DNA of 64,000 nt from Escherichia phage Lw1. Below, in pieces: positions 7,982 to 35,148 of this stretch. The translations under genes were made by a program, and so were the position numbers. A model generated the notes under the pieces. It was given only the letters and a program-made list of their open reading frames with translations, made no database searches and was not told where the DNA came from. The DNA is taken from sequence record KC801932; one strand, 5' to 3'. Numbering within the stretch: the stretch's first letter is position 1; each line of letters begins with the position of its first letter.

Positions 7982-8236
7982 TTAAAAAAGATGCGTTAAA
8001 TGTCCTGCATTGCTGGGGTATTCGACGTAATCACCACGGAAGATGTTCAAATCTTTATCAAATTTAAACCCATGTCCTTGAACATCTTCATGACGAGATA
8101 CATAAGATACTCCATACTTTTCAAGGTCTTCCATATACATTTCGGTGATTCTCTTCGCTTTATCCAATCCGCGTCCCTCAAATCGAGAACGTCGATAATT
8201 CGCAAGAAGAAACGCATATAATTCTTCGTATGTCAT
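7982..8236 (-). CDS. hypothetical protein (84 aa)
   Basis: ORF; overlaps upstream methyltransferase gene end. Confidence 0.45.
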   Translation of the reverse strand: MTYEELYAFLLANYRRSRFEGRGLDKAKRITEMYMEDLEKYGVSYVSRHEDVQGHGFKFDKDLNIFRGDYVEYPSNAGHLTHLF

Positions 8237-9144
8237 TTCAATACCTTTCTGATTTGTTTCGCTATGGCTTCGATCACGGGTATTGAAACTGAATTTCCCG
8301 CTTGACGATATGCCTGTTTTTTACTATCCGGTATGATAAATGAATCAGGGAATCCCTGCAAACGAAAACACTCACGGGGAGTAAGTCTTCTGGGGTTCTT
8401 TCCTTCCTGCAACACCAGACATTGAACGCCGTCCTTGTAATACTGCTGGGTTATCGTCCCAGTGTGCGTAGAATCGCTTGTGACGGCCTGATAACCAAAC
8501 CCCTTACCATTCGCCTTGTTTCGTTCCTTACGCTCTCTAAAGCCTTTCCACGCGTTATCTGATAGGGTGTATGAATCATCAGCATCTTCGAGGATATCGC
8601 CCACTCTCGTAGGGGTACGCGGAGGAACAGGAAACGAAAAGAATACATCATCCAGGAAGCAAACAATAAACACACGTTCACGTCTTTGTGGTAGTCCGAA
8701 ATCTTTTGTATTCAGTCGTTGATAGAATACGTTATATCCTTCGGCCTCCAGAAGCCCGTAAATCGTTTTAAACGTCTTCCCCTTGTCATGGGTTAGTAGT
8801 TCAGGCACGTTCTCAAAGAACAGCACACGGGGCTTTTTAGCGCGTATGATGCGGAGTATTTCAAAGAACACAGTACCGCGAACATCATCGAACCCCAGTT
8901 TTAATCCTGCTTTACTGAATGCCTGACACGGGAACCCAGCCAACAGGATATCGTGATCAGGTACTTCGGTTTCTTTTATCTGGAACAGATCTCCCTGTAG
9001 GTTATCATTGCCCCAGTTTTCGATATATGTTTGCTGTGCGAACTTGTCGATTTCAGACGTTAAAAGGCATTCGACACCGCCGAACGCCTTATCAAATCCT
9101 AATCGAACCCCGCCCACACCAGCACAGAGGTCAATTATTTTCAT
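8233..9144 (-). CDS. DNA (cytosine-5)-methyltransferase, Dcm-like
   Basis: all canonical C5-MTase motifs in order: I DLCAGVGG, IV GFPCQAFS, VI FENVPEL, VIII QRRERVF, IX RLTPRECFRLQGFPDSF, X GNSVSIPV. Confidence 0.9.
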   Translation of the reverse strand: MKIIDLCAGVGGVRLGFDKAFGGVECLLTSEIDKFAQQTYIENWGNDNLQGDLFQIKETEVPDHDILLAGFPCQAFSKAGLKLGFDDVRGTVFFEILRIIRAKKPRVLFFENVPELLTHDKGKTFKTIYGLLEAEGYNVFYQRLNTKDFGLPQRRERVFIVCFLDDVFFSFPVPPRTPTRVGDILEDADDSYTLSDNAWKGFRERKERNKANGKGFGYQAVTSDSTHTGTITQQYYKDGVQCLVLQEGKNPRRLTPRECFRLQGFPDSFIIPDSKKQAYRQAGNSVSIPVIEAIAKQIRKVLK

Positions 9145-9401
9145 ACGTCAAAATCAATCTCGTCAATTTTGTATGAGTTTTCGTCAATGTCCGCCCATAG
9201 GGTTACATTGACGTGTTTACTATCTTCGTACAGATTACGCCCGTTCATCCCGCCCGTGTAATTGCTTTCGGTACGTTCAGTAACTTCCAGTCGGAGGCTA
9301 TCGCGCATGATCTGAACAACAGCCTGTTCCAGCGTAACCGCGTCTGGGTTTTTGGTATCGCCCAGTACAACGTCTTTAACGTTCAAAATAACATCAGTCA
9401 T
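9141..9401 (-). CDS. hypothetical protein (86 aa)
   Basis: ORF. Confidence 0.45.
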   Translation of the reverse strand: MTDVILNVKDVVLGDTKNPDAVTLEQAVVQIMRDSLRLEVTERTESNYTGGMNGRNLYEDSKHVNVTLWADIDENSYKIDEIDFDV

Positions 9402-9685
9402 TAGTAAAATTTCCCATAGGTGTTGAAATTTACGTGCGTCGGGCTTGCTTCTTCAACACGAATTTCATAATCATAATCCTCATTTGTTACGGAACGATCA
9501 TGTTTGATGACATCAACGATATATACCCGGAAGAATGCATGATACAGCGCATCGCGGATCTTTTCAGCAAGTACCGGAGGCTCACTATACAGGTTAATCA
9601 TATCGGAAACAATATCCTCTACGCGAGGAATATCGCGTTTATCAATATAACCAGTATATAAATTTACTTCTTTCATTAATGCCAC
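9401..9685 (-). CDS. hypothetical protein (94 aa)
   Basis: ORF. Confidence 0.45.
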   Translation of the reverse strand: MALMKEVNLYTGYIDKRDIPRVEDIVSDMINLYSEPPVLAEKIRDALYHAFFRVYIVDVIKHDRSVTNEDYDYEIRVEEASPTHVNFNTYGKFY

Positions 9686-9921
9686 TCCGTTTCGATACCG
9701 TATTTGTATGCGTCAATCCCCAGAGGGGTGATCAACAGACACATATCAGTATTTTCGTTTGGCGACTTAAACGCCGCAGTTGCGTAACCTTTTTCAATCA
9801 GGGCATTACGCCCTGATTTACTGGGTACGTCATCGAAATCCAATGTTAACACCTGTGATGCATATCTGTAAAGTTTATACAGCACGTCAATTTCAGCACC
9901 GGATAATTTCGGGAATGTCAT
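9676..9921 (-). CDS. hypothetical protein (81 aa)
   Basis: ORF. Confidence 0.45.
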   Translation of the reverse strand: MTFPKLSGAEIDVLYKLYRYASQVLTLDFDDVPSKSGRNALIEKGYATAAFKSPNENTDMCLLITPLGIDAYKYGIETEWH

Positions 9922-10916
9922 TTGTAGTACCCCACAACGTGATCGCGATAAACGCGTTCGATAAAGTCGTTCCAGAACTCGCGATCAACCTCTTTCGGAT
10001 AATTAGAGACTGCTGCAAGGCGTTCGACTTCACCCATGATTTCTTCCAGCTTTTCCTGGACAAAAGTGAAAGGTTTCGTTCCGGCTTTAACTTCTTTTAA
10101 AAGCTGGCTCTCTTCCAGAGGATATACGATATCACCATGTTTGTAAATGCTGATAAGCTGTAAGCCTCCGCGCAATGCGTGAGAAAGTGCTTTCCAGTCG
10201 ATCCCGTTGTTGGCTTCTGCCTGTCTTGCTCGTTCACCATATTCGTCCCAGAGTTTATACACTGACTTTTTCATTTCAGCTACGGTGATCGTAGACTGGA
10301 ATTTGCGCCCCAGCACTTCATAGAAGTCCTGACAACCGGATTTCAGGGTTTTGTCTGTAGTGAATCGACAGAACTCATTGGTCGGGAATGTGTGAGAGAC
10401 TTCACCAACTTTGATGTGATGTGTTGCGTCACCCAGATTAGACGGCATACGAACAATGCGGCTATTTGGTGTATCCTGCAACACATCGTATACTTCACGC
10501 AGTGCAGCCAGGCGAGAACCTTTAACGCCATACTTCGCCGCTTGCTTACGAACATAACCAAACAGGCCAGTTAGTTCCGTAGTGTAGAAACGTGAACGGT
10601 TAGCGCGGATATACTGCCAGATTTCGGAGTTAGCGATCATCTTACTATCATCAGCATGAAGCATATCGAGCGCTACGGTATCACCATCACACGCAAGGCT
10701 AATGAACTTAGGCAGACTATACAACTGACGGTCGATGTCGTCTACGGTGTTCTTAGAGCTTTTATCGCCCGTGCTCGTGTCGATAGTCTTCGGGGCTTTA
10801 CCCAGTAAGATATCGCGTGGATGCGGGAGAAAGATCCCTTTATAATCTTTGTCGCTTGTCGGGGTGTTCAGTCCATACAGGTGAGAACCGAACACAGTTT
10901 CCATTACAATTTTCAT
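9918..10916 (-). CDS. Pol-beta superfamily nucleotidyltransferase (332 aa)
   Basis: N-terminal GS-x9-[DE]h[DE] signature FGSHLYGLNTPTSDKDYKGIF with third acidic residue about 60 aa downstream (ALDMLHADD); helical C-terminal half. Confidence 0.55.
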   Translation of the reverse strand: MKIVMETVFGSHLYGLNTPTSDKDYKGIFLPHPRDILLGKAPKTIDTSTGDKSSKNTVDDIDRQLYSLPKFISLACDGDTVALDMLHADDSKMIANSEIWQYIRANRSRFYTTELTGLFGYVRKQAAKYGVKGSRLAALREVYDVLQDTPNSRIVRMPSNLGDATHHIKVGEVSHTFPTNEFCRFTTDKTLKSGCQDFYEVLGRKFQSTITVAEMKKSVYKLWDEYGERARQAEANNGIDWKALSHALRGGLQLISIYKHGDIVYPLEESQLLKEVKAGTKPFTFVQEKLEEIMGEVERLAAVSNYPKEVDREFWNDFIERVYRDHVVGYYK

Positions 10917-12397: not shown

Positions 12398-12582
12398 TAA
12401 TCAGCAAGCCTTATGTTATTTGGATCTGGAACGAAAGTATCTTTCTGGGTAATCATGAACACCAGGAAAGCGGCGATTTCAGGATCATCAATAACGTTGA
12501 ACTTGCGTTTGCCTTTCCAGCGTACCGCGATTTTACCATCATCGAGTTTTCTGATTGCTGCAACTTCTGCTTTCTGAGTCAT
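12397..12582 (-). CDS. hypothetical protein (61 aa; start at MTQKAEV)
   Basis: GGAGG RBS before ATG at 12582; upstream extension is read-through of PeSL-like cassette 2. Confidence 0.5.
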   Translation of the reverse strand: MTQKAEVAAIRKLDDGKIAVRWKGKRKFNVIDDPEIAAFLVFMITQKDTFVPDPNNIRLAD

Positions 12583-12593
12583 AATTACCTCCT

Positions 12594-12650
12594 TCGTTTC
12601 GATGCCCCTAATATAACAAAAGCCCTCACGCGAACGCAAGGGCTTTTTTA
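12594..12650 (-). promoter_or_regulatory. PeSL-like cassette 2
   Basis: hairpin aaaagccctcacgcgaacgcaagggctttttt + TGTTATATT + conserved leader. Confidence 0.6.
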
Positions 12651-12750
12651 ATCTTTTTATCGACAGAAAGGACAACTAAACTTATCGCCGCTTCCACCAT
12701 GACGAGGACAGCAAATTTTTTCGATTGGTGTCATTGTTAAAATTTTCATT

Positions 12751-13809
12751 TTAAAGTCCAGTAAACGCAACGATAATCTGATAGTGGTCATCGAAGAACT
12801 CACCACGTTTCTGTTTGACTTCGTGCATAGGCATCCAGAACGCCTCTGCTGCATCGTCAGCGCCTCCCATAATACGGGGCAGACTTCCATCATTGTTAGG
12901 CTCTAACTTGATGTATTGCGCTACAGTCGGTTTTGAGAAGTGTACGGAACGCTTCGGATGGTCGAACAGCATAGAATTGCGGATTGAACCACGGATAACC
13001 TTTTCAGGAACCTTGATCCGAACTTCTTCGAGCAATTCGCGGATCGCACAATCCAGGAACGTTTCATTCGCGTTTTTGTGTCCACCTGGCAGGGCTAATG
13101 CGCCTTTACCTGGTGCAAACTTACGACGAATCACTAACACATGGTTATTACAAACAACCACGCTATCACCAGTACAACAGTTTAACGCGTCGGGGTATGG
13201 GTACGCTTTGAACTTCTCCAGTTCATCTTCCCATTTCTCGAACTCGTAGTACAAGCGCCAGAACGTATCGGTCATCATCCATCCGTTAAGAGAACCCACG
13301 ACAGCAGCAGGAACATAACGGGCGATCTTCTCGTCCCATCCATTTTTATGTAAAAAGATGGTTGGACGCAGGTCGGTAGCAGATAAATCTTTGCCGTCAA
13401 CCTTAACCGGATCAACCGGAACATGAGTCCATCCGAACGCTTTAAGCCAGTACGAATCAGCATCTTTTTCGTAACCGTAGATCGCGATGTTATCGCCTTT
13501 GGTTTCGTCGATTGCTGTACGAACAGAGGTTTTCCATTTTTCTTCATTGTAAAGGTAATCTGGAATCGGCTTGAATTGCACACGGGCTACATCTTCGTAT
13601 TTGAACTCAGACAGTAACCAGCTTGTAATCATACGTTCCCGTTCGGTTGCCGTCAGCGGGTTTAAAACGTTAGGGTAAGCATAAGCTGAACCCAGGAGGA
13701 TATAAACGGTCTTCGACTCTTCCAGTGCTTTACGCACCATTGCCGCGTGACCATTATGGAAGGGTTGGAATCTGCCAATTACGACAGCTTTATCAAATTT
13801 GTATTTCAT
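12751..13809 (-). CDS. bifunctional NMN adenylyltransferase / Nudix hydrolase (NatV/NadM-like)
   Basis: N-terminal (H/T)xGH nucleotidyltransferase motif GRFQPFHNGH; C-terminal Nudix box GGHKNANETFLDCAIRELLEEV; start set at MKYKFDK with GTGGAG RBS. Confidence 0.8.
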   Translation of the reverse strand: MKYKFDKAVVIGRFQPFHNGHAAMVRKALEESKTVYILLGSAYAYPNVLNPLTATERERMITSWLLSEFKYEDVARVQFKPIPDYLYNEEKWKTSVRTAIDETKGDNIAIYGYEKDADSYWLKAFGWTHVPVDPVKVDGKDLSATDLRPTIFLHKNGWDEKIARYVPAAVVGSLNGWMMTDTFWRLYYEFEKWEDELEKFKAYPYPDALNCCTGDSVVVCNNHVLVIRRKFAPGKGALALPGGHKNANETFLDCAIRELLEEVRIKVPEKVIRGSIRNSMLFDHPKRSVHFSKPTVAQYIKLEPNNDGSLPRIMGGADDAAEAFWMPMHEVKQKRGEFFDDHYQIIVAFTGL

Positions 13810-14976: not shown

Positions 14977-15360
14977 TTAAGAAAGTTTTGTCAGCTTGTA
15001 AATCGTTTGATAGCACAAGCCTTTTATCTCGTCCAGGATGTTCTTCAATGAACTATCAACTGCGTCGTAGATTTCTTCGGCTTCGGCGGCTATTTTACGG
15101 AGATACGCTACCGTGTCAAGCACATTTTCAACTTTTAATACGGGTTTGTACCTTCCGGTAATGCCTATATGGATTTCGGTGAACTTATCGACCAGATCCT
15201 GCATATCTTCGTAAAACCCTTCATATGCTTTATGCTGTGAGTATGAACCAGTCGCAAAGTGTGCGCTGTGCATATACGTAACAGACATTAGGCATGTGCC
15301 GATAAAGGCATCGATCTTACTTGTGGTATCGCGTTCTGTAATTTCGTTAAACGTCTGCAT
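14977..15360 (-). CDS. hypothetical protein (127 aa)
   Basis: ORF. Confidence 0.45.
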   Translation of the reverse strand: MQTFNEITERDTTSKIDAFIGTCLMSVTYMHSAHFATGSYSQHKAYEGFYEDMQDLVDKFTEIHIGITGRYKPVLKVENVLDTVAYLRKIAAEAEEIYDAVDSSLKNILDEIKGLCYQTIYKLTKLS

Positions 15361-15370
15361 CTTTCATCCC

Positions 15371-15652
15371 TTATGAACGATGAATAGAAGCGAATTCAGT
15401 TGCTACCCTAAGCCCTAAGCGTTTGCATTCAGGTTCAGATTTACACTGTTTCTGCTGCCATTTTCGTTCCATATAATTATAGAAAAGTTCACTTGTATTT
15501 ACGCTGGGAGGGATGGTGTCTAGATACACCTGTAGCGCTGCATTGATGTAGTAGTCGAATTCTTTCGGTACGACTGAATCATCTGCGTGTGATGCTGGAG
15601 ACAAGATTAACAAACCAAACATCAGCGCTTTGGATATGCGTTTAATGTTCAT
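15371..15652 (-). CDS. small secreted protein (signal peptide MNIKRISKALMFGLLILSPASHA)
   Basis: signal peptide with AxA cleavage motif; TATAAATA on minus strand at 15713-15720. Confidence 0.5.
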   Translation of the reverse strand: MNIKRISKALMFGLLILSPASHADDSVVPKEFDYYINAALQVYLDTIPPSVNTSELFYNYMERKWQQKQCKSEPECKRLGLRVATEFASIHRS

Positions 15653-15760
15653 AAGCAATTTCTCTACGTGCTTACGGATCACCAATAGACCCGTTCCTGT
15701 ATATATTTATAGCAAAAAAGGGGCAATAAGCCCCCTTATGTTAAATCGATATAAAAATAA

Positions 15761-16153
15761 TCAGGTTATGTCATACCAGCATAAGCTACGCTCATATGCG
15801 CGGATCTTGTTGGCGTTTTCGATGTTTTCATCCCACCCAATTACACCAGCTTTCATCCGGCGCAATTCCTGACGCATCTTTTCACGAACTTTTGAATCTA
15901 TGCGCTTCTTTGCAATTTCGAGCATAACGGAAATGTCACCATGTGCTTTGTTACCGTCGCGGTTCACGTTCTTATCAAACCGGATATATGCGCAACCTGA
16001 TTTGTGTTTCCAATTGGTTGTATACCAACGTAAACCATCAGGGCTTTCCCCGTGTTGTGCATAATACTGTGAAAATGCTTTTGTCTCTTCGATCTGTTCG
16101 ATAGAGGACTTATCACGGGCTGGAACATATTTGTTACGGTAAGTACGGCTCAT
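15761..16153 (-). CDS. hypothetical protein (130 aa)
   Basis: ORF followed by hairpin + T6 terminator at 15722-15745. Confidence 0.45.
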   Translation of the reverse strand: MSRTYRNKYVPARDKSSIEQIEETKAFSQYYAQHGESPDGLRWYTTNWKHKSGCAYIRFDKNVNRDGNKAHGDISVMLEIAKKRIDSKVREKMRQELRRMKAGVIGWDENIENANKIRAYERSLCWYDIT

Positions 16154-16183
16154 AATGACTCTCCTTTGTTGTCTGATTACACC

Positions 16184-16768
16184 TTAACAGTTCACACCGA
16201 CTTTATCAAGCACCTTTTCATGATAATGCTTGCGACACAACGAAACGTATTTGTCTTCGGCTCCGATTTCGACTTGCGCCCCTTCTGTTACGAAGTTGCC
16301 TTGTGCGTCGATACGGGCGACCGTAGTTGCTTTACGTCCACAGTGACACATTCCCCTCAGTTCGCGGATCTCGTCAGCCCAGGCAAGCAACCAGTAAGAA
16401 CCCTCGAACAGATTCAACTGAAAGTCGGTACGCAACCCGTAGCACATCACAGGAATTTCGAGTTCATCGACAATACGACACAGATCGAAAACGTTTTTCT
16501 TCGAGAGGAATTGCGCTTCATCAACGAAGATACAAGAGATATTATTCCGGCGCAGGATATCCCAGAACAGATCCATTCTGGGTGCAATCAGTTCACAATT
16601 TGCACTTAGCCCAACACGAGAAGCAACAGTGTGTGATGTGCGAGTATCAAGCATAGGCTTGTAGATCACAACGTTCATACCGCGTTCTTTGTAGTTGTAT
16701 GCGTCTGTTAACAGACGCGCACTTTTGCCAGCGTTCATTGATGCGTAGTGATAATACAGTTTAGCCAT
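16184..16768 (-). CDS. tk: thymidine kinase
   Basis: P-loop YASMNAGKSARLL, FVDEAQF, C-terminal zinc ribbon CHCG..C..H; collinear with recalled T4 Tk. Confidence 0.9.
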   Translation of the reverse strand: MAKLYYHYASMNAGKSARLLTDAYNYKERGMNVVIYKPMLDTRTSHTVASRVGLSANCELIAPRMDLFWDILRRNNISCIFVDEAQFLSKKNVFDLCRIVDELEIPVMCYGLRTDFQLNLFEGSYWLLAWADEIRELRGMCHCGRKATTVARIDAQGNFVTEGAQVEIGAEDKYVSLCRKHYHEKVLDKVGVNC

Positions 16769-16973
16769 GTTTAGCCCGTTCCTCTGCTACTGCATCAAAC
16801 ACCGCGTCTTCAACTTCTTTTTCGACGAATGAAATGATTTCATCAACCATGCGATCGATGTATAATTGGTTGACATTGCGCGAATCTGGATCATCTTCTG
16901 CTGCATAATCCTGGTAAAGTTCTCCCAGTTCTTTCAGCTTGTGTTTTAACACTTTTTCTTCTTGAACTCTCAT
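16761..16973 (-). CDS. hypothetical protein (70 aa)
   Basis: ORF overlapping tk start. Confidence 0.45.
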   Translation of the reverse strand: MRVQEEKVLKHKLKELGELYQDYAAEDDPDSRNVNQLYIDRMVDEIISFVEKEVEDAVFDAVAEERAKHG

Positions 16974-17146
16974 TCTCTCGCCTCTTTACGTTCTTTATCG
17001 ATTAAGTCATCAACGAAACTGACAATATCATCCCACCAGTCCAATGCTTCCTGTGATGCTTTCGCGTCACCTTCGAGGAAACGATCGCGGGACTTTACGA
17101 AGTTCTCTACTTTCTTATAGAGTTTTTCTTTATCTGCGTTGATCAT
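16970..17146 (-). CDS. hypothetical small protein (58 aa)
   Basis: ORF below track cut-off; ATGA overlaps at both ends couple it to neighbours. Confidence 0.35.
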   Translation of the reverse strand: MINADKEKLYKKVENFVKSRDRFLEGDAKASQEALDWWDDIVSFVDDLIDKERKEARE

Positions 17147-17619
17147 AATTCCACCTTACGCATATCAATAGACGGATCGAAGTGTACCACGATGGTCGGA
17201 TAGTCGCCAGTAGAATCGTTTATAATGTCTTTAATGCGTTCCCAGTCGCCTCCAGCAAGCCCCGCACCAATAAGAGGGTAACGTTCAGGACACGCCCTGG
17301 CGCTTTCCACGGCGCTTTCAAAGCATGAACGGATTGCGTCGTAATCCACTTGTGGGCCAGCACCCCAGAACTTAAACTGGGTATAGGCGTTGAACACCAT
17401 ACGACCATCCTCTTGAACATAAACAGAGTTACGGCCCAGTTTTTTCTGGTTGCCTTTAAGCGTCATTGCATCCATTCGAAACGCGCCAGGGATTTTCTTC
17501 TTTACTTCTTTTGCAATCCCCGCACCCATATTACAGAAGCAGTTACACCCATGAATCAGGTGTACGTCACGACGAAGGAACAACTCAACAGCGTTCCCTT
17601 TAATCTCTTTGATAATCAT
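17143..17619 (-). CDS. macrodomain protein, TARG1/DarG-like (ADP-ribose processing)
   Basis: LIHGCNCFCNMGAGIAKEV matches the recalled H-C-x-S/N-x-D/C-x-x-MGAGIA core of TARG1/OARD1-type macrodomains; second Gly-rich loop GAGLAGGDW. Confidence 0.55.
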   Translation of the reverse strand: MIIKEIKGNAVELFLRRDVHLIHGCNCFCNMGAGIAKEVKKKIPGAFRMDAMTLKGNQKKLGRNSVYVQEDGRMVFNAYTQFKFWGAGPQVDYDAIRSCFESAVESARACPERYPLIGAGLAGGDWERIKDIINDSTGDYPTIVVHFDPSIDMRKVEL

Positions 17620-17711
17620 TCTTTATTACCCATTTTATAGCCGATCCCAATGACCAGCCCCATCAAAATAACCGCGCTTATCAAAAGCGCGAATTGTAGA
17701 CCTATGCTCAT
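17616..17711 (-). CDS. possible 31-aa membrane peptide
   Basis: ATGA-coupled to macrodomain gene; hydrophobic core LLISAVILMGLVIGIG. Confidence 0.3.
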   Translation of the reverse strand: MSIGLQFALLISAVILMGLVIGIGYKMGNKE

Positions 17712-17851
17712 TTAAATTGATCGTCCCATAGTTGCCACGCTTCCAGTTCATCATTGTATTCAGGGAGTGAACGTTCCCCTGGTTTCTTGACGTAATACCA
17801 GATAATGATAGCAACGGCGATAACAGTACCGTAAAAGATAATTAATCCCAT
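17708..17851 (-). CDS. possible 47-aa membrane peptide
   Basis: TAATG-coupled to upstream gene; N-terminal TM helix. Confidence 0.3.
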   Translation of the reverse strand: MGLIIFYGTVIAVAIIIWYYVKKPGERSLPEYNDELEAWQLWDDQFK

Positions 17852-18177
17852 TAGTATAATCCTATTCCGGCGTTATATTCATCCACCAGATAGGTACGCA
17901 GTTTTTCGCAGCGTTCCTTATTCGGTGCGCGGGTACAGAGTTTCATCATTGGTTCAGACTGCAAGAACTCGCGTTGTTTAGCCAGCTTTTGACGTTTGTA
18001 CAAGTGCGCGTTTTCTTCGCCCCACACATAAGCCGCGTCCAGTTGTTCCGCGATCACCTGGTAACATACCACAGTATCTTTAATGTCTCGATGGTCGCAG
18101 AGTTCAGACAGACGGTTGTCATCAACAGCGAACACGGAACCAGAAACCAAAGTCAGCAACAGCGCAAGTTTTTTCAT
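17851..18177 (-). CDS. small secreted protein (signal peptide MKKLALLLTLVSGSVFA)
   Basis: classical signal peptide. Confidence 0.5.
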   Translation of the reverse strand: MKKLALLLTLVSGSVFAVDDNRLSELCDHRDIKDTVVCYQVIAEQLDAAYVWGEENAHLYKRQKLAKQREFLQSEPMMKLCTRAPNKERCEKLRTYLVDEYNAGIGLY

Positions 18178-18179
18178 TA

Positions 18180-24075: not shown

Positions 24076-24077
24076 AA

Positions 24078-25191: not shown

Positions 25192-26342
25192 TTTAACTCC
25201 ACTGCATAAACATCGGTTTCGGGGGCTTTGTGTACGCGCATATCTTTACCACATACCGCATAAGCCGGACAGTTGCGACAACCGTTATGATCCGTGTTGC
25301 CTGTCAGTTCTTTACGGAACTGTTTTGTTTTCGGGTGTTCCCAGATATCTTTGATAAAATCATCGGCTTCAAGGACATTCAAACCTTCACCCCAGCCACC
25401 TTCAACCCAACGTTCGGTAAACGAGCAAGGGAAGAATTCGCCTTTTTCGTTGATGTAAGAGCTAAACATCGTCGCTTCACAATCTTCCGCATACTGCTTG
25501 TATTGTTCGAAGTTCGGGTGTCCCTCCATCGCTTCAACGAAAGCTGGGGCTGAACAGCTATCGAATCCAAATCCTACACCAGAATCAAGGCAGTATTCAA
25601 CAAGTTTTTTGTATTGTTCGCGGGTGACTGTATCCCAGTTCTTACCACGTCCCTTTTGTTTCAGACCCAGGAACACGATCGCGTTGACTTGTTTCAGGCG
25701 CGGATCATTACGCACAGCATCAACAACGGTAAACGCATCATCATAGGTCTTTGAGCTAACCATGAAATGTAGGTTGATTTGCTGTTGTCCTGCTTCTGCC
25801 AGGTTTGCGACGGAATCGAAAGCAACATCGAAGCCAGCATGTTTATAAACCGATACTGCAACAGCCCCAGCAACCGCCGCTAAACGCGCTGCAACGTCTT
25901 TTGATACATCAGCAATGGTAAGGTTCGGTACAATGCCTTTAGAACGCGCATAGGCCATCATATCGAACATATCAGGGTTTGTTTGTCCCTGTGCATCAGC
26001 ACCGAGTGCGCATTGGGTTAACCAGGGCATTTTATCAATGATGGATTTGAAAGAAGCAAGATCCATATTGTAGCCGTTCGGGTTATTGGACTTGTAACAG
26101 AAACCACACAGCTTACCAGCGGGGCCATTACATTTAGTTGTGATCTCGATATCGAGGATAAAAGGAAAATGACTATAAATAGGATCGTCAGCAGGAGTTT
26201 TGCCCCAAGTCATCATATGACCTGTTTTCATATCAAAATTAAAATTAACCTCTTCGGAACGATAGATTTTCTTTCCTTTCGCTTCCAGTAGAAGTCCAAC
26301 AGGCGTTTTGATATGTTTGGCGTTTACTTTAACGTGTCTCAT
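25188..26342 (-). CDS. Fe-S protein, radical-SAM-like with C-terminal SPASM/twitch-like Cys motif
   Basis: ITTKCNGPAGKLCGFCY (Cx7Cx2C, rSAM-like TxxCN..C.FCY context) and C-terminal CRNCPAYAVC (Cx2Cx5C); start set at MRHVKV with GAGGT RBS. Confidence 0.45.
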   Translation of the reverse strand: MRHVKVNAKHIKTPVGLLLEAKGKKIYRSEEVNFNFDMKTGHMMTWGKTPADDPIYSHFPFILDIEITTKCNGPAGKLCGFCYKSNNPNGYNMDLASFKSIIDKMPWLTQCALGADAQGQTNPDMFDMMAYARSKGIVPNLTIADVSKDVAARLAAVAGAVAVSVYKHAGFDVAFDSVANLAEAGQQQINLHFMVSSKTYDDAFTVVDAVRNDPRLKQVNAIVFLGLKQKGRGKNWDTVTREQYKKLVEYCLDSGVGFGFDSCSAPAFVEAMEGHPNFEQYKQYAEDCEATMFSSYINEKGEFFPCSFTERWVEGGWGEGLNVLEADDFIKDIWEHPKTKQFRKELTGNTDHNGCRNCPAYAVCGKDMRVHKAPETDVYAVELK

Positions 26343-26354
26343 AGGAACCTCATA

Positions 26355-27083
26355 ATGTATTACGTTTACAGAATCACAAATGTTATAGAGAACAAGCACT
26401 ATTATGGATCAAGAAAACCTAAAAAGTCAATGCTTGCTTCCGACGATTTAGGGAAACACTATTTCAGTAGTTCCCGTGATAGTCATTTCATCCAAGATCA
26501 GAAGGAAAATCCAGGACACTACAAATATAAAGTAATCGTATCGGGGTTGTCAAGGGAAAAGGCGATGAAACTTGAGAAAAGGTTACACGAAATCTACAAG
26601 GTGGACACGAACCCACATTTTTATAACAAACACATACACAACAGCGTTGATTTTTCATGTACACCAGAAACAGGAAAGAAGATTTCACAAACACACCAGA
26701 AATATGCAGCAAAGAAAATTTCAGAATCACATAAAAGGCGATTCAAGGAAGGTATAGCATCACATAAAGGAGAGAACAACCCACGATACAACGATCATCG
26801 GTCTTATGAAGAGATACACGGAGAAGAAAAAGCGGAGACTATACGCAAAGCACAATCTGAATCAAGAAGAGGAAAAGGCAATTCCCGCGCGGTTACGTGG
26901 AAATTTACTTCCCCTAATGGAGAAGAATTTTTAGTTGAAGGAGAATGTAAAAAGTTTTGCAAAGACAGAAATATTTCCATGCGTAAACTGAAAACCTATC
27001 TGGGTGAAGTCATCACAACATGCGATAAACCCTACTATATCTCTAAGAATACCGTAGGATGGAAATTAGAAAAGATTATTTGA
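26355..27083 (+). CDS. GIY-YIG homing endonuclease (Seg-like)
   Basis: N-terminal MYYVYRITN...HYYGS (GIY..YIG), basic C-terminal DNA-binding region; lone plus-strand gene among minus-strand genes. Confidence 0.7.
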   Translation: MYYVYRITNVIENKHYYGSRKPKKSMLASDDLGKHYFSSSRDSHFIQDQKENPGHYKYKVIVSGLSREKAMKLEKRLHEIYKVDTNPHFYNKHIHNSVDFSCTPETGKKISQTHQKYAAKKISESHKRRFKEGIASHKGENNPRYNDHRSYEEIHGEEKAETIRKAQSESRRGKGNSRAVTWKFTSPNGEEFLVEGECKKFCKDRNISMRKLKTYLGEVITTCDKPYYISKNTVGWKLEKII

Positions 27084-29957: not shown

Positions 29958-29978
29958 GATGTTTTCCTTTCTGTGTTT

Positions 29979-30034: not shown

Positions 30035-30993
30035 TATTTTGGCAATTTTTTGATTAATGCTTGTAAGTCGTTGATTTTAGAAAACAGTTCATCGCTATAT
30101 CGCATCAATTCCTGTCTGCGTTTCGCAGCCCATGAAACCAATGTTTTTGCATCATCAACACCATAAGTGTATCCATCAGCGGATAGACGAATGATCGCAC
30201 GAGAACCGTAGTCAGCATTTGCATGTTCGATTAAAAACTTCACCGCTTCGAGAAGTTCGGAATCTTCCTTACTGACTAGAACACCGTTATCATCAGGAAA
30301 TTCGTTTTCATCATGAACACTTGCAAAATCAAGGTCGATATAATCATCCTGATTCACCTGGCGGCGCGTGTTGTCTTCGAGACTTTCAATCTGTGAAACC
30401 ATAGTTTCGACCGGATCTCTTTCAATTGGTTCTCTGTCGGTTCCTACTTCTTCCAGGAACATCAACAACCAACCAGGGATCAACGAATCAAAAGAACGCT
30501 GAATATGGCTTGCATGGTCACTACCCAGTATTTTCAACGCACAACCGTCTTTAGTAGCGGTATGGATATAGATAACATTACGGTCACGCATACGGCGGCT
30601 ACCATGAGAAAGATAGCGACGTAGCGAAGTGTTATGTCCATAGCGTCCCAGATCCAGGTTACACAGGGAATCAATAGCCCCACGGTTAGCAATCCGGTAG
30701 CGCGTACCAGTTTCAAATCGCAACTTTTCGGTAGTCACTGGTGTGAATTCTTCGTAAAGAATGTAATATTCTTTCGGGATCTCGCGATCAAGAACTCTCA
30801 ATACACCATTCTCCGAAGGAGTGAGCACAGAACGAACATTACCGTTCGCATCGCAATGTACCTGCATGACTTGAGGATAATAGAACCCTTTAGCCTTTAG
30901 GGTGTATTCATGCAAACGACTCAAGCGCTTTCTGTAGTACCATTTACCAGTAACAAACGGGGTTGCAGATCCTGCTAAACTAATTGGTTTCAT
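30034..30993 (-). CDS. hypothetical protein (319 aa), co-transcribed with DUF262 gene
   Basis: ATGA overlap with upstream DUF262 ORF; no motif recognised. Confidence 0.5.
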   Translation of the reverse strand: MKPISLAGSATPFVTGKWYYRKRLSRLHEYTLKAKGFYYPQVMQVHCDANGNVRSVLTPSENGVLRVLDREIPKEYYILYEEFTPVTTEKLRFETGTRYRIANRGAIDSLCNLDLGRYGHNTSLRRYLSHGSRRMRDRNVIYIHTATKDGCALKILGSDHASHIQRSFDSLIPGWLLMFLEEVGTDREPIERDPVETMVSQIESLEDNTRRQVNQDDYIDLDFASVHDENEFPDDNGVLVSKEDSELLEAVKFLIEHANADYGSRAIIRLSADGYTYGVDDAKTLVSWAAKRRQELMRYSDELFSKINDLQALIKKLPK

Positions 30994-31523
30994 TTTGTGG
31001 CCTTATACATTTCAATTACGCGTTTCATGTGCTCTTGTGATTGAGGCACACCAGCGAAGTTCAATTTAATGAAGAATTCAAGACGATCCTTTTTGGTGCA
31101 TTCATCCAGCCCCAGGGCAGGTAATGACAAGTTTTCAAAGGCTCGTTGTTCATGTCGTTGCATATCATCCCAGAACAGACGGGAACCATCCGGCATAGGA
31201 ATCCCAATCTCACCCTCATAGACTTTGATGATAGTCGTCAGGCGTTGTTTCCCGTCGATTACTTCTACCCAATGGGATTCATTGAATTCACTATCAACGG
31301 CAATCGCGATAATACCACATGGGAAACCAGTGATCAACGTAGTCAGGAATTCATCTTGTTCTTTCTGCGTCCACACGTAGGGGCGCTGATACGATGGATT
31401 CAGATCCAGATCCTTATTTTTCCACCAGTGAATATAACTTCCAACCATGATCGCATGTTCACGACTTTTGAAAGTTATCCGTTCACGAATTCGGTTACGG
31501 GCTGGGATATCATCTTTAGACAT
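30990..31523 (-). CDS. DUF262 (ParB/Srx-like, GmrS N-terminal-type) domain protein
   Basis: NPSYQRPYVWTQ ... VIDGKQRLTT resembles the DUF262 QR-x-yvW and DGQQR motifs. Confidence 0.5.
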   Translation of the reverse strand: MSKDDIPARNRIRERITFKSREHAIMVGSYIHWWKNKDLDLNPSYQRPYVWTQKEQDEFLTTLITGFPCGIIAIAVDSEFNESHWVEVIDGKQRLTTIIKVYEGEIGIPMPDGSRLFWDDMQRHEQRAFENLSLPALGLDECTKKDRLEFFIKLNFAGVPQSQEHMKRVIEMYKATK

Positions 31524-32110: not shown

Positions 32111-32497
32111 TTATGCCTTTGGGACAACACCGAATGCCAGAAGACCCATACGATGATCGTTATCTGCCTCTTCACGGAAGAAATAGTATTGTTCATCGGA
32201 AATATCGATTACGGTGATACCCTCTTTCAGATACGGCAACAGATATAACGGGATCAGCATCAAATCAGATTCACTGCTCCATTTACGGAAACCCAGATTT
32301 TCCATTTCTTCCCGCGTCAAATCATTAGGATCTACCGGAAAGAAATTAGGCGATTTCATCAGGCGACCAGGAAGGTCACGAATATTGCTGATTGCGAATT
32401 CCGTTCCCCATGAAGTGTATTCAATAGGTTCGGCGGCACGGGTTGCGGTAGCAACGAGAATCATTTGGCACAGTTGAAAAGTATTTGGATTGCTCAT
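32111..32497 (-). CDS. hypothetical protein (128 aa)
   Basis: ORF. Confidence 0.45.
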   Translation of the reverse strand: MSNPNTFQLCQMILVATATRAAEPIEYTSWGTEFAISNIRDLPGRLMKSPNFFPVDPNDLTREEMENLGFRKWSSESDLMLIPLYLLPYLKEGITVIDISDEQYYFFREEADNDHRMGLLAFGVVPKA

Positions 32498-32907
32498 GAT
32501 ATAGATCCCACAAGTTTAGTCAGAAGGTGTCCCATAGTCTTACGCGCATGATCGCGGATTTCGCTATAAGGAACATATTTGAAACCATCCATTTCTGTTA
32601 TAGTTCGACCATTCTTAACGAAGGTTGACGCACAGAAACATTTTTCGGCTTCGGGGTAAGTATCGCCTTTGTAGACAAACAATGCAAGTTTTTTCTTGTT
32701 TGTATAGTCCAAAACACCCAGGCTGATCAGTTGGTCGGGGAACACTTCAAAGCCAGTTTCTTCGAAGCATTCACGAATAGCAGCATCAATATGGGCTTCG
32801 CCTTTTTCAACATGCCCCTTTGGGATATCCCAGTGGGGCGTTTCGGTAGCGTGACCCATTAGAATGCTGCCGTTATTCAGAAAGAGAATACCAGCAGACA
32901 ATTCCAT
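32494..32907 (-). CDS. Nudix hydrolase (NudE-like)
   Basis: Nudix box GHVEKGEAHIDAAIRECFEETG; start set at MELSAG. Confidence 0.8.
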   Translation of the reverse strand: MELSAGILFLNNGSILMGHATETPHWDIPKGHVEKGEAHIDAAIRECFEETGFEVFPDQLISLGVLDYTNKKKLALFVYKGDTYPEAEKCFCASTFVKNGRTITEMDGFKYVPYSEIRDHARKTMGHLLTKLVGSIS

Positions 32908-32908
32908 G

Positions 32909-33136
32909 TTATACCCCTTTAGAGGTAAACTGTGCGTCGTATGCTGCAAGTGCATTATCTGCACGTTTTTTCGCTTCGGTATGCCCACGACTATCATTGA
33001 TAGCACGACGATACATTTCGACCCAGAATACGCGACGTGTATCTTCGTTCGCTTCAAACAGTTTAATATCGCGGTATACGTTTTGCTCTTTGATCATTTG
33101 AGCAAGTTGCAGGTCATGTTCGGTTTGGAAAGTCAT
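32909..33136 (-). CDS. hypothetical protein (75 aa)
   Basis: ORF. Confidence 0.45.
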   Translation of the reverse strand: MTFQTEHDLQLAQMIKEQNVYRDIKLFEANEDTRRVFWVEMYRRAINDSRGHTEAKKRADNALAAYDAQFTSKGV

Positions 33137-34008: not shown

Positions 34009-34250
34009 AATATATTTCTCACTTAAAGAATTTTTTGATGAAAGAGAGGAACAATCCACCACCGAACATGATCCAGTATCCCGCGCCGTCACCGTGAAAC
34101 AGGACGTAAACCGCGACACCATAACAAAAGATTTCTGCAATATTCAGTAAGTTTCTCATAATCCCCTCCCTTTTCTCTACACCAGGTATTTTACCAGAAA
34201 ATAGACTACTGTCAACAACAAAGTTTTATCAACGATACGATCACCAGTCA

Positions 34251-34391
34251 TCAGTAGTCACCCATAGGTTGAGAAGAAGCAACGCTCAATACGAGGAAAG
34301 AGCACTTGTTGATCCGGCAATATTCTTTTGCACAGTGAACACTACCTTTCATCACAAACCCGTTTGAGAACACCAACCAGTAAAGTTTCAT
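34251..34391 (-). CDS. hypothetical small protein (46 aa; start at MKLYWL)
   Basis: AGGAGGTAA RBS; PeSL cassette 6 upstream. Confidence 0.4.
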   Translation of the reverse strand: MKLYWLVFSNGFVMKGSVHCAKEYCRINKCSFLVLSVASSQPMGDY

Positions 34392-34403
34392 GATTACCTC
34401 CTT

Positions 34404-34458
34404 TGTTTCGACACCCCTAATATAACAAAAGCCCCTGCACGAATGCAAGGGCTTTTTC
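34404..34458 (-). promoter_or_regulatory. PeSL-like cassette 6
   Basis: core tgtttcgacacccctaatataac plus hairpin agcccctgcacgaatgcaagggct. Confidence 0.6.
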
Positions 34459-34626
34459 AAATATTTTTCAACATGCGTAGTTGAGGTGGACAATCTGGAG
34501 AAGCAATCAAACGATCCAGGCGAGACATAACGCGACGGTATCCGTCATACTCAAACTTGATTTTAGGCGGTACGTAGTTCACGTTAATTGCGTTGCGCGT
34601 GTTAATGTTCGCTTCGTACTCAGGGA

Positions 34627-35148
34627 TCACGAACTCTCGCCGCGATGTTCGATGTGCTCCGTGATATCCTCAACAGTCTTATCAAGGTCCAGAGATTCAG
34701 CATCTTCCTTGATAATAGTCAAATCTACAGGCAGTGTCAACAGTCTTTTCACTCCGCTGATATCTTCGATACGAGAATCATACGCAAGGGTAACATGCGG
34801 TTTGTAGTTGTCAAAATCGTAAGTCGCTCCGGCATCCATCGCATCATTGAAACGGCTATGCAGATAATCAGACTCCAGAACACCGACGATAGTGTTACCG
34901 TATTTTGTGTCCCACTTCTCTACGTCAACCAGTCGGGCAGGTTCAGAGATACCAGAGGCAGGGAACAAATCAACCGTCTTACGGCTATACACAATCGTTG
35001 TATGAAGTTTTTCAGCAGACACCGGATTCTCTACACCCAGAAGTTTTTGCACTTGTGCAAGCGCTTCACAGGAAGCCTGATCGAACTTCGCACACATATA
35101 GATCCCCGAATCAACTACGGGTTTCGCAACTTCAATAAAACTTTTCAT
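34627..35148 (-). CDS. acb1: 2H phosphoesterase, Acb1-like anti-CBASS nuclease (T4 gene 57B position)
   Basis: two H-x-T-x motifs (LHTTIVYS and PHVTLAYD) about 70 aa apart; immediately downstream of 57A as 57B is in T4. Confidence 0.7.
   Translation of the reverse strand: MKSFIEVAKPVVDSGIYMCAKFDQASCEALAQVQKLLGVENPVSAEKLHTTIVYSRKTVDLFPASGISEPARLVDVEKWDTKYGNTIVGVLESDYLHSRFNDAMDAGATYDFDNYKPHVTLAYDSRIEDISGVKRLLTLPVDLTIIKEDAESLDLDKTVEDITEHIEHRGESS

Follow-up and report, generated by a model that had tools for sequence, protein, structure and literature searches.

The early region of Escherichia phage Lw1 that holds five candidate counter-defence genes is very probably the usual arm of non-essential early genes in a T4-type genome, extending between the side of baseplate gene 25 and 57A/1/3, in which the five genes carry independent functions and form no co-selected island. 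The five genes are mostly counterparts of phage anti-immunity genes that have already been described. Lw1 is a T4-like Pseudotevenvirus of the RB43/RB16 group with a published genome of 176,227 bp, and its nearest match in the phage collection is RB16 (92.7%). The window analysed here is a 64-kb stretch of record KC801932. The arm was defined as positions 400-36700, with 84 minus-strand ORF slots; the remainder of the window consists of plus-strand baseplate and tail genes. All five ORFs proposed in the earlier note were confirmed in place and on the minus strand (Table 1).

Table 1. Features of the early arm of Lw1, with positions in the 64-kb window
Feature	Position	Strand	Main match or remark
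Orphan C5 DNA cytosine methyltransferase, 303 aa, Dcm-type target-recognition domain (TRD)	8233..9144	-	Pfam PF00145 DNA_methylase 8.9e-93
T4 NrdC.11 homologue, RlaP-family Pol-beta nucleotidyltransferase, 332 aa	9918..10916	-	Pfam PF10127 RlaP 6e-14
PeSL-like repeat copy: GC-rich stem-loop, TATATTA, then Shine-Dalgarno	12579..12658	-	Direct-repeat families D1-D6
NatV/NadM-type NMN adenylyltransferase + Nudix hydrolase, 352 aa, Nmnat half of NARP2	12751..13809	-	Pfam CTP_transf_like 1.6e-08, NUDIX 6.8e-15
T4-collinear anchors rI.-1, rI, tk, (tk.4), vs, vs.1	14977..19296	-	Frame the macrodomain gene
58-aa ORF, stop overlaps macrodomain gene start by 4 nt	16970..17146	-	phrog_19420 4.4e-32
Orphan macrodomain, 158 aa, T4 Tk.4 (AdfM, anti-DarTG2) homologue	17143..17619	-	Pfam Macro 1.1e-05
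Homing endonuclease gene inside the arm	26313..27083	+	phrog_314 5.2e-26
DUF262-only (GmrSD N-terminal domain) protein, 177 aa, without nuclease domain	30990..31523	-	Pfam GmrSD_N 7.9e-19
NudE (T4 e.1) Nudix hydrolase homologue	32494..33057	-	Pfam NUDIX 1.6e-12
Acb1 (gp57B) 2H phosphoesterase, 173 aa	34627..35148	-	Pfam PF23474 3.3e-48
Further PeSL-like copies	936-997, 18610-18645, 27894-27932, 28254-28333, 29960-30029, 34388-34467

Gene order and strand of the arm

The genes nrdC.11, rI.-1, rI, tk, tk.4, vs.1, nudE, 57B, gp1, gp3, gp2 and gp4 occur in the same order in Lw1 and in the T4-type phage RB27, and the conserved T4 order is nrdC.11 – rI – tk – tk.4 – vs – nudE – 57B – 57A – 1 – 3. 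The T4-type counterparts match the same Pfam families as the Lw1 proteins. The anchor genes around the macrodomain gene match Pfam DUF5856, Antiholin, TK and SLT, as well as phrog_1256 (valyl-tRNA synthetase modifier); BLASTP pairs them with rI.-1, rI, tk and vs.1 of RB27, where the order is identical. The NudE homologue (39% identical to RB27 nudE) is a further synteny anchor and the second Nudix enzyme of the arm. The concentration of the five genes in one arm, on which the earlier note rested its case, corresponds to this conserved order: nrdC.11, tk.4 (adfM) and 57B (acb1) are T4 counterparts retained in ancestral order, and the Dcm-type orphan methyltransferase and NatV are RB43-group additions on the same T4 scaffold.

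The description of the arm as hyperplastic holds relative to T4, as T4-type homologues are BLAST-detectable for only 10 of the 84 slots, but not within the genus, where RB16 has a match for 75 (about 90% of gene content kept). Similarly, its description as a minus-strand early arm is correct in part. Early expression is plausible from the sigma-70-like sites, all eight of which (at least 10/12 matches, positions 8000-27999) are on the minus strand; however, the homing endonuclease gene is on the plus strand, and of the minus-strand ORFs opposite this gene, the two longest (26488-26730 and 26804-26980) had no match in PHROGs, RB16 or Klebsiella phage phi1_146010. As a separate observation, 6-bp palindromes are strongly avoided.

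Families of the five proteins

Each of the five families is backed by Pfam, and the assignments, including their finer labels, were upheld by Pfam, structure and profile matches. For three of the families, Acb1, NARP2 and AdfM/Tk.4, anti-defence activity of homologues has been shown experimentally.

The Acb1 assignment is supported by a match to PDB Acb1 7t26 (4e-25) in which both H-x-T motifs (HTT, HVT) align. The protein is 41% identical to RB27 57B and 100% identical to that of RB16, and, as in T4, its gene is placed directly upstream of 57A, gp1 and gp3. Insertions in T4 57B/acb1 are depleted on a CBASS host (10.1101/2025.11.20.689424). By analogy with its homologues, the Lw1 enzyme would cut CBASS cyclic-oligonucleotide signals.

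The macrodomain protein, which is 100% identical to Lw1_gp142, scored 25.8 bits against a Pfam Macro cut-off of 22. It is 35% identical to RB27 tk.4 (2e-25), occupies the T4 position between tk and vs, and is 27% identical to PhiKZ AdfM gp104 (3e-9). The label TARG1/DarG-like is borne out by its AF2 model (pLDDT 91), for which the top Foldseek matches were the Thermus aquaticus DarG macrodomain 5m31, TARG1 4j5s and BT1257 2fg1, and by DarG as its sole PADLOC match (1.9e-08). Homologues were found in 2,727 of 50,697 phage records, and a macrodomain is encoded by 41% of myoviruses. A T4 tk.4 knockout is more sensitive to DarTG2 (HIDEN-SEQ, 10.1101/2025.11.20.689424), with enzymatic removal by T4 AdfM inferred in that work, and PhiKZ AdfM strips DarT2 ADP-ribose off DNA in vitro (PMC13309987). 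The Lw1 protein may likewise take DarT2-type ADP-ribose off thymidine in phage ssDNA. An invariant Gln occupies the position of the DarG/TARG1 catalytic Lys throughout the family, T4-type Tk.4 included, so the chemistry may differ from that of DarG. In addition, four residues just before the PLIGAG segment, present in all close relatives, are missing from Lw1, and model confidence dips at the gap (pLDDT 79-82); this allele could therefore be impaired. The adjoining 58-aa ORF had no Pfam match and is missing in RB16 and phi1_146010; in RB16, it was lost together with the macrodomain gene as a clean two-gene indel with TCATTCT at both junctions.

NatV matches Synechocystis NadM 2qjo (7.6e-54) and Francisella 2qjt (6.5e-46) over its full length, and NCBIfam bifunctional NMNAT/Nudix at 1e-78, under the equivalog cut-off. 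The ORF can be extended to 13851 via TTG, although the Shine-Dalgarno context favours the ATG at 13809; a sigma-70-like TTGATT-16-TATAAT is found upstream at 13959-13932. Homologues occur in 435 phage records, with about 40% identity in KVP40-like Vibrio phages. The name NatV-like is supported by the NadM match and by Table S2 of the NARP preprint, which lists the Lw1 Nampt KC801932_00235 as 'Nmnat-associated'; the Nampt gene is absent from the 64-kb window and encoded elsewhere in the genome. Together, Nampt and Nmnat of KVP40 abolish Thoeris and DSR2 defence (NARP preprint), and Lw1 NatV with NadV would be expected to restore NAD+ after Thoeris, DSR or SIR2-type depletion.

Cells that carry no defence system also gain NAD+ from NARP2, so a purely metabolic function, in which NatV and NadV raise NAD+ for replication, is conceivable for this pair. 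Extended to all five genes, phage metabolism and self-regulation as the chief purpose is an improbable explanation. It would have the methyltransferase act in regulation or packaging, NrdC.11 maintain tRNA pools, and the macrodomain reverse or tidy ADP-ribosylation by phage Alt/Mod-type enzymes or remove the ADP-ribose-1''-phosphate left by RNA repair. Evidence against it is that the KVP40 NARP2 genes, when co-expressed, abolished two defences and that a NARP2 knock-in phage partly overcame Thoeris, although tk, nudE and gp1 add further nucleotide-metabolism genes to the arm. For the macrodomain, the range of known substrates (Appr1p and protein ADP-ribose among them), the presence of yeast Poa1p, an Appr1p phosphatase, among its Foldseek neighbours and the missing catalytic Lys agree with such a role, but DarG is the nearest profile in two independent libraries, and T4 can do without tk.4 and 57B on plain K-12, the two genes mattering only on DarTG2 or CBASS hosts.

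The methyltransferase is over the cut-off of NCBIfam TIGR00675 dcm (1.7e-95) and under that of the Dcm subfamily PRK10458 (196.7 bits). It contains the catalytic C5-methyltransferase signatures PCQ, ENV, QRRER and GNSV and is 95-96% identical in RB16 and phi1_146010. Its top full-length structure was M.HhaI (1.2e-63). For the TRD alone (residues 165-251), the structures matched were all of Dcm type (3lx6 and 3me5), at a weak 5e-5 and 26 bits, which agrees with the Dcm-like label. The Lw1 genome paper states in one line that virion DNA is methylated at Dcm sites. From this line and the weak TRD match, the specificity is probably CCWGG; modification of phage CCWGG sites would, as in homologues, block EcoRII-type restriction.

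NrdC.11 is 51% identical to RB27 nrdC.11 (2.6e-119), itself a PF10127 protein, and G10, S11, D22, D24, D60, D62 and D84 are invariant in 30 homologues. No sequence relatives were found in the PDB. Foldseek of the AF2 model (pLDDT 86) gave weak matches only (E about 7e-3), the clearest being the Pol-beta nucleotidyltransferases 3c18, HalB, kanamycin nucleotidyltransferase and poly(A) polymerase. RlaP enzymes extend RNA 3'-OH ends by one or two NMPs (10.64898/2025.12.29.696909). NrdC.11 may similarly put one or two nucleotides on damaged RNA 3' ends, plausibly aiding tRNA repair after anticodon-nuclease attack; we infer a tie to counter-defence only via the RNA-repair function proposed for the RlaP family, and no RNA ligase gene was found beside nrdC.11 in the window.

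Spacing, small ORFs and repeats

The five genes are 0.8 to 17 kb apart. Random placement among the 84 slots equals or beats their span with P = 0.58 and their tightest trio with P = 0.27, so that they are no closer together than random ORFs of the arm. That they share the arm is explained by its holding essentially every non-structural accessory gene in the window. A genuine selected anti-defence island, with small interleaved ORFs enriched for undescribed anti-defence proteins, is thus rather unlikely, if less so than a metabolic purpose; joint expression on injection or cassette exchange via PeSL-like repeats are examples of what could maintain one. The small ORFs, named as prime candidates in the earlier note by guilt by association, gave no match in Pfam or PHROGs to families whose anti-defence role is known. 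The arm also carries unrelated genes for thymidine kinase, antiholin rI, endolysin, SLT, PhoH and dNMP kinase, and the two-gene NARP2 pathway is itself split by the location of Nampt. In favour of an island, the strand bias of the strong sigma-70-like sites is consistent with immediate-early expression, and the same arm of RB27 has genes annotated vs.4 and ipI, the genes for Acb2 (anti-CBASS) and IPI* (anti-GmrSD), respectively.

Also in favour of an island, PeSL-like repeats are present at gene boundaries beside natV and acb1, and modular shuffling in T4-like phages has been proposed to run through PeSLs. The macrodomain module is a cassette that is either cleanly present or cleanly absent, which also speaks for an island, but its indel junctions show 7-bp microhomology and no PeSL. 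Terminator-like stem-loops were called at 12647-12618 and 18646-18617. The DUF262-only protein matched NsnA (1.6e-16) and PD-T4-2_A (2.9e-12) in PADLOC, is labelled 'DefenseFinder protein' in phi1_146010 and is present in 266 phage records. A further point in favour of an island is that about one-third of phage genomes have anti-defence genes at most 10 kb apart, and the use of guilt by association for discovery has been put forward (PMC11724313).

Comparison with known systems

The Lw1 methyltransferase resembles the E. coli/Shigella Dcm (EcoRII-type; 3lx6, 3me5) in its TRD and M.HhaI in its catalytic core; unlike Dcm, it lacks the N-terminal extension of about 90 aa, is phage-encoded and has no restriction enzyme partner. 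NrdC.11 shares with RlaP of P. fluorescens and P. aeruginosa the PF10127 domain, the GS and conserved Asp residues, an N-terminal nucleotidyltransferase domain and a C-terminal helical domain, but T4 NrdC.11 falls in sequence cluster 5 and the characterised RlaP enzymes in cluster 1a (10.64898/2025.12.29.696909). NatV has the bifunctional Nmnat-Nudix architecture of KVP40 NARP2 (NadV + NatV), whose genes are treated as an operon in the preprint, in contrast to Lw1, where the Nampt gene is outside the window.

Like T4 Tk.4/AdfM and PhiKZ gp104, the Lw1 macrodomain is a stand-alone protein of about 155-160 aa. It shares the HGCNCF...MGAG...YTQ...IGAG motifs with T4-type Tk.4, and its conserved N26 corresponds to N23 of PhiKZ AdfM, the Asn mutated in that study; in PhiKZ AdfM the residue aligned with the catalytic one of DarG is Lys, whereas in the Tk.4 family it is Gln. 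The Lw1 Acb1 shares PF23474, scored well over its threshold, and both catalytic H-x-T motifs with T4 gp57B and Erwinia phage FBB1 Acb1 (7t26/7t27), and the position upstream of 57A; its C-terminus is about 20 residues longer than that of the T4-type protein (173 versus 152 aa).

Anti-defence islands of T4 have already been published (AntiDefenseFinder paper, PMC11724313). The Lw1 arm is like these and the hyperplastic regions and PeSLs of T4-like phages (PMC2839356, PMC4122927) in combining multiple genes against different systems amid small ORFs, and in being variable, early and edged by promoter/stem-loop repeats. It differs from the T4 islands in its spacing, no tighter than chance, and in its gene content, conserved within the genus.

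Family assignment of the five flagged genes

The earlier note had singled out five minus-strand genes of the early arm as counter-defence candidates. All five ORFs are present (see the table below), and a Pfam profile search matched each to the family that had been named for it.

The Acb1 (57B) protein matches PF23474 at 3.3e-48 (163.5 bits against a cut-off of 27) and a solved Acb1 (PDB 7t26) at 4e-25. Two of its segments, KLHTTIVY and KPHVTLAY, line up with HTT and HIT in the solved Acb1, the two catalytic H-x-T/S motifs of the 2H fold. The protein is 41% identical to T4-type 57B and, as in T4, its gene lies directly upstream of 57A. T4 depends on 57B/acb1 when it grows on CBASS hosts; cleavage of CBASS cyclic nucleotides and rescue from CBASS were shown for T4 57B only (10.1101/2025.11.20.689424).

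NatV contains the Pfam domains CTP_transf_like and NUDIX and aligns end to end with bifunctional NadM enzymes, namely that of Synechocystis (2qjo, 7.6e-54) and that of Francisella. The nucleotidyltransferase motifs GRFQPFHNGH and SATDLR, located by alignment to 2qjo, and the Nudix box G-x5-E-x7-RELLEE are intact. Its partner in the NAD+ reconstitution pathway NARP2, the Nampt NadV, is absent from the 64-kb window. The partner is found elsewhere in the Lw1 genome, as Table S2 of the NAD+ reconstitution (NARP) preprint lists KC801932_00235 as an "Nmnat-associated" Nampt, alongside those of RB16, CfP1 and IME-CF2. The NARP2 assignment for Lw1 is therefore already in the literature. Restoration of NAD+ and defeat of an NAD+-depleting defence were shown in that preprint for the KVP40 genes only. 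NatV homologues were found in 435 of 50,697 phage records, in agreement with the NARP2 frequency of 1.1% published there.

The methyltransferase matches Pfam DNA_methylase (PF00145) at 8.9e-93 over profile positions 1-323 of 324. Alignment to M.HhaI, the best solved structure for the full-length protein (1.2e-63), revealed GFPCQAFS with the PCQ cysteine, FFENV, QRRER and GNSV, which we take to be the defining catalytic motifs of C5-methyltransferases. The protein passes the NCBIfam dcm superfamily model and scores below the cut-off of the PRK10458 Dcm subfamily model. Specificity in C5-methyltransferases is set by the target-recognition domain (TRD), the stretch between motifs VIII and IX. When the TRD was searched alone against solved structures, only the Dcm-type structures 3lx6 and 3me5 matched, at 5e-5 and a weak 26 bits, and no HhaI TRD was found. 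An HhaI-like GCGC specificity, with M.HhaI as the best full-length PDB match and GCGC not avoided in the window, was rejected on this restriction of TRD matches to Dcm-type structures. CCWGG (Dcm-type) specificity is our best guess and our prediction for the Lw1 enzyme. CCWGG is not depleted in the window, with 123 sites or 0.82 of expectation.

The isolation host of Lw1 was BL21(DE3), and dcm activity is lacking in E. coli B strains. Because of this host, the methylation of many Dcm sites of virion DNA, described in a Lw1 genome paper that does not give the propagation host, is plausibly of phage origin. Neither of the two flanking ORFs (7982-8236 and 9141-9921) contains a Pfam domain or a nuclease domain, and both match only PHROGs of unknown function; the methyltransferase is therefore an orphan, without an adjacent cognate restriction endonuclease.

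Six-base palindromes are strongly avoided across the window (1-64000). Twenty-nine of the 64 are absent, as are 16 of the 49 expected five times or more; of 3,620 non-palindromic hexamers, only 8 are missing. The absent palindromes include GGATCC (0 observed, 20.9 expected), TCCGGA (0 and 23.8), CGTACG (0 and 14.7) and CTGCAG (0 and 13.8). The tetramers CTAG (0.34), AGCT (0.49) and GGCC (0.54) are depleted, and GATC, GCGC and CCWGG are not. In a phage with unmodified cytosine, this avoidance looks like passive evasion of type II restriction that would complement methylation.

The fourth protein, NrdC.11, matches PF10127 (RlaP) at 6e-14 (52.8 bits against a cut-off of 23). G10 and S11 of the GS motif, together with D22, D24, D60, D62 and D84, are invariant among 30 homologues; three conserved Asp residues are required in RlaP (10.64898/2025.12.29.696909). 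Lw1 NrdC.11 is 51% identical to the T4-type NrdC.11 of phage RB27, which matches the same Pfam family, and the copies in RB16 and RB43 are annotated as nrdC.11. No close solved structure was found in the PDB copy searched, which lacks the PfRlaP crystal structure, and Foldseek matches were weak, the clearest being Pol-beta nucleotidyltransferases (NTases). In the AF2 model (pLDDT 86), an NTase domain at the N-terminus is followed by a helical domain at the C-terminus, an architecture that it has in common with PfRlaP (10.64898/2025.12.29.696909). Bacterial RlaP enzymes add one or two NMPs at damaged RNA 3' ends, and a model confined to these bacterial enzymes was proposed, in which tRNAs attacked by nucleotide-excising ribotoxins (RloC, for example) are rescued; T4 NrdC.11 was put in a separate cluster "of unknown function" (December 2025 preprint, 10.64898/2025.12.29.696909). 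A counter-defence role of Lw1 NrdC.11 in repair after anticodon nucleases is plausible by analogy, on purely inferential grounds. The domain scans of the ORFs of 5630-35454 returned no RtcB, Rnl or Pnk match, which gives NrdC.11 no RNA ligase or RNA repair neighbourhood there; the PHROG label "RNA ligase" in this region belongs to Acb1. The ORF directly upstream of nrdC.11 bears a phage ProQ C-terminal-like domain. A conserved RNA module of the two genes was rejected, as the corresponding upstream ORF of RB27 lacks a ProQ_C domain.

Features of the early arm of Lw1 with their coordinates, strands and matches
Feature	Coordinates	Strand	Match or remark
Methyltransferase	8233-9144	-	
NrdC.11 (RlaP)	9918-10916	-	
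NatV	12751-13809	-	
Macrodomain protein (Tk.4/AdfM type)	17143-17619	-	Lw1_gp142, 100% identical
Acb1 (57B)	34627-35148	-	
ProQ_C-like ORF	10913-11311	-	
58-aa ORF	16970-17146	-	adjoins macrodomain gene
Zinc-ribbon ORFs	19917-20093; 20101-20298	-	both phrog_2834 (two stretches); Pfam DZR weakly
PIN-PhoH2-type protein	20336-21679	-	NCBIfam PhoH2 1.1e-29, below its cut-off
Radical SAM enzyme, SPASM/twitch domain	25188-26342	-	phrog_7293
Homing endonuclease gene	26313-27083	+	phrog_314, 5e-26
319-aa protein	30034-30993	-	next after DUF262-only ORF, 4-nt overlap
DUF262-only protein, 177 aa	30990-31523	-	GmrSD_N 7.9e-19; PADLOC NsnA 1.6e-16, PD-T4-2_A 2.9e-12
Plus-strand gene	36836-37717	+	matches RB16 gene of unknown function
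PeSL-like repeat, at least seven gene boundaries	936-997; 12579-12658; 18610-18645; 27894-27932; 28254-28333; 29960-30029; 34388-34467	coding (-)	
T4-type functions: antiholin (rI), DUF5856 (rI.-1), thymidine kinase	within 5630-35454	-	Pfam/PHROG
T4-type functions: valyl-tRNA-synthetase modifier, SLT-domain protein (vs.1), endolysin	within 5630-35454	-	Pfam/PHROG
T4-type functions: PIN-PhoH, radical SAM/SPASM enzyme, NudE, 57A chaperone	within 5630-35454	-	Pfam/PHROG
Further proteins: ProQ_C-like, SPFH, DUF262-only	within 5630-35454	-	Pfam/PHROG

The macrodomain gene and its absence from RB16

The macrodomain protein matches Pfam Macro at 1.1e-05, and a sequence search of the PDB returned BT1257, SCO6735, DarG and TARG1. 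DarG is its sole match in PADLOC (1.9e-8) and likewise in NCBIfam. The nearest Foldseek matches of the AF2 model (pLDDT 91) were Thermus aquaticus DarG (5m31, 3.9e-8) and TARG1 (4j5s, 4.5e-8), and the predicted fold belongs to the TARG1/DarG (ALC1-like) class. The protein is 35% identical (2e-25) to T4-type Tk.4 of RB27, and the gene lies between tk and vs in both genomes, the order tk ... tk.4 – vs – vs.1 of the window being that of the T4-type genome. Homologues were detected by tblastn in 2,727 phage records, including those of T-even phages, in which the gene is tk.4, next to vs. The one T4 gene found to be needed for growth on a DarTG2 host was tk.4, which thereby received the name adfM (November 2025 preprint, 10.1101/2025.11.20.689424). 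An unrelated macrodomain of a chimallivirus, PhiKZ gp104, strips the ADP-ribose added by DarT2 from DNA in vitro (PMC13309987).

The catalytic Lys of DarG (K80) and TARG1 (K84) is not present in the Lw1 protein, which has Q81, a residue invariant in 42 family members. T4-type Tk.4 shares this Gln, whereas PhiKZ AdfM and TARG1 have Lys. Because Gln replaces the catalytic Lys as in T4-type Tk.4, the Lw1 protein is, judged by its sequence, a Tk.4-type AdfM homologue and not a canonical DarG macrodomain. The argument that the missing Lys makes the Lw1 protein inactive was dropped, as T4-type Tk.4 has the same Gln and protects T4 from DarTG2. N26, M31-G32-x-G34 and G118/G120 are invariant or nearly so in the family, and N26 corresponds to N23, the active-site Asn of PhiKZ AdfM (PMC13309987).

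At about residues 110-116, the Lw1 protein reads ...CPERYPLIGAG..., where all close relatives have ...CPE(R/Q)LPIVTPLIGAG.... This 4-residue deletion is found only in the Lw1 allele; it precedes PLIGAG, adjoins the phosphate-binding loop and coincides with the lowest AF2 confidence. The Lw1 allele may be weakened by it.

RB16 lacks exactly two genes here, the macrodomain gene and the 58-aa ORF (window 16974-17619 against RB16 ~18220-18310). The flanks of the gap align perfectly, and the heptamer TCATTCT stands at each of the two Lw1 junctions, a sign that the deletion may have been mediated by microhomology.

Content and layout of the early arm

The window belongs to the published genome of Lw1 (KC801932), a Pseudotevenvirus. 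From ~400 to 36,700, almost all genes are on the minus strand, bounded by a homologue of the baseplate gene 25 and by 57A, gp1 and gp3; past ~36,700, baseplate and tail genes follow on the plus strand. In 8000-27999, eight sigma-70-like sites match at 10 or more of 12 positions, and every one of them lies on the minus strand, a distribution that fits early transcription of the arm. Over window positions 8000-30000, RB16 is 92.7% identical across 85% of the length, and other RB43-group phages of Citrobacter, Klebsiella, Enterobacter and Cronobacter are 83-90% identical. The arm is not very plastic within the genus, since 75 of its 84 ORF slots have a match in RB16.

All 72 minus-strand ORFs of 5630-35454 were scanned by concatenation against Pfam and PHROGs. 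The scan recovered the same five flagged genes and the expected T4-type functions. The earlier note had regarded the small ORFs interleaved between the five as prime candidates for further anti-defence functions; no family with a known anti-defence role was found by Pfam or PHROGs among the remaining ORFs of this region, and the suggestion was not borne out. BLASTP with T4-type arm proteins found no homologue of vs.4 or ipI in the window.

Ten successive minus-strand genes in 7982-12397, among them those for NrdC.11 and the methyltransferase, are joined by start/stop overlaps of 1, 4 or 10 nt, which suggest a single translationally coupled transcription unit. The two neighbouring zinc-ribbon ORFs, downstream of the vs.1-like SLT gene, look like tandem paralogues. 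The radical SAM enzyme, which has no specific NCBIfam equivalog, and the PIN-PhoH2-type protein, a putative RNA helicase/nuclease, are both conserved genus-wide, and neither has a known role during phage infection.

Two of the eight plus-strand ORFs tested inside the arm are real. One is the homing endonuclease gene, which runs into the start region of the radical SAM gene; of the minus-strand ORFs opposite it, the two longest showed no homologues. The gene probably corresponds to the one MobE-family endonuclease that the Lw1 genome paper mentions.

The DUF262-only protein is similar to the N-terminal domain found in defence nucleases of the GmrSD, NsnA and PD-T4-2 types, but it has neither a nuclease domain nor a nuclease partner. 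A split GmrSD-like nuclease formed with its 319-aa downstream neighbour was rejected: the latter has no Pfam, PADLOC or NCBIfam match, and RB16 shares only its C-terminal third. The DUF262-only protein may act on defence nucleases of the DUF262 type, as a decoy or as an inhibitor, or may be what is left of a phage-borne system.

The intergenic repeat consists of a GC-rich stem-loop (AAAGCCCTTGC...GCAAGGGCTTTT), followed by TTATATTA and then by CGAAACGAAGGAGG with the ATG; its parts are the stem-loop, TATATTA and a Shine-Dalgarno sequence. Other T4-like phages have similar promoter/terminator cassettes, known as PeSLs (PMC2839356, PMC4122927). No description of the repeat for the RB43 group was found in the paper checked on these cassettes.

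Inherited gene order and comparison with T4

The earlier note had also taken the concentration of the five genes in one genome arm as the observation of interest. In a permutation over the arm's 84 ORF slots, five randomly placed genes spanned no more than the observed distance in 58% of trials (P = 0.58), and in 27% (P = 0.27) they included three as close together as the genes of the methyltransferase, NrdC.11 and NatV. Statistical clustering into an anti-defence island is thus not significant. RB27 has, on one strand, the order nrdC.11, rI.-1, rI, tk, tk.4, vs, vs.1, e, nudE, 57B, 57A, 1, 3, 2, 4, and 12 of these genes have BLASTP counterparts in the same order in the window. NARP2, the sole multi-gene pathway, is split, with NatV in the arm and Nampt at a distant locus. 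Because of the T4-type collinearity, the chance-level permutation result and the split NARP2, the arrangement is, on gene-order comparison, an inherited one, and the concentration is not meaningful. This is a caution for T4-like genomes in general: early-arm co-location of anti-defence genes reflects inherited order, and by itself is weak evidence on the function of neighbouring ORFs.

A further reading, which we consider unlikely, joins the ADP-ribose and NAD enzymes (the AdfM-type macrodomain, the NatV Nudix domain, NudE and the distal NadV) into one salvage loop in place of separate counter-measures, with at least one tightly coupled small ORF as a new anti-defence factor or cofactor. Nudix domains would convert ADP-ribose, whether taken off DarT-modified DNA or set free by NADase effectors, to AMP and ribose-5-phosphate; these products would pass through PRPP to NMN by way of NadV, and NatV would re-adenylylate NMN to NAD+. 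Candidates for the small ORF would be the 58-aa ORF, which is inherited together with the macrodomain gene, and the overlap-joined genes between 12397 and 7982.

The finding yields little new biology. It provides checked annotation for five Lw1 genes, most of them deposited as "hypothetical" or with generic names. For phage therapy with Pseudoteveniruses of Klebsiella, Enterobacter and Citrobacter, the genes predict which defences would be tolerated, namely CBASS, DarTG2, NAD+ depletion and EcoRII-type restriction. The T4 AdfM family, with its unusual Gln active site, reaches the RB43 group, and exactly that module was lost in RB16.

Anti-defence islands in T4 and the use of guilt by association (PMC11724313), as well as hyperplastic regions and PeSL cassettes (PMC2839356, PMC4122927), have already been published. 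The feature itself is ordinary. Its genes belong to anti-defence families already known, most of them have T4 counterparts, and they lie in the accessory arm usual for such phages, in a genome already published.
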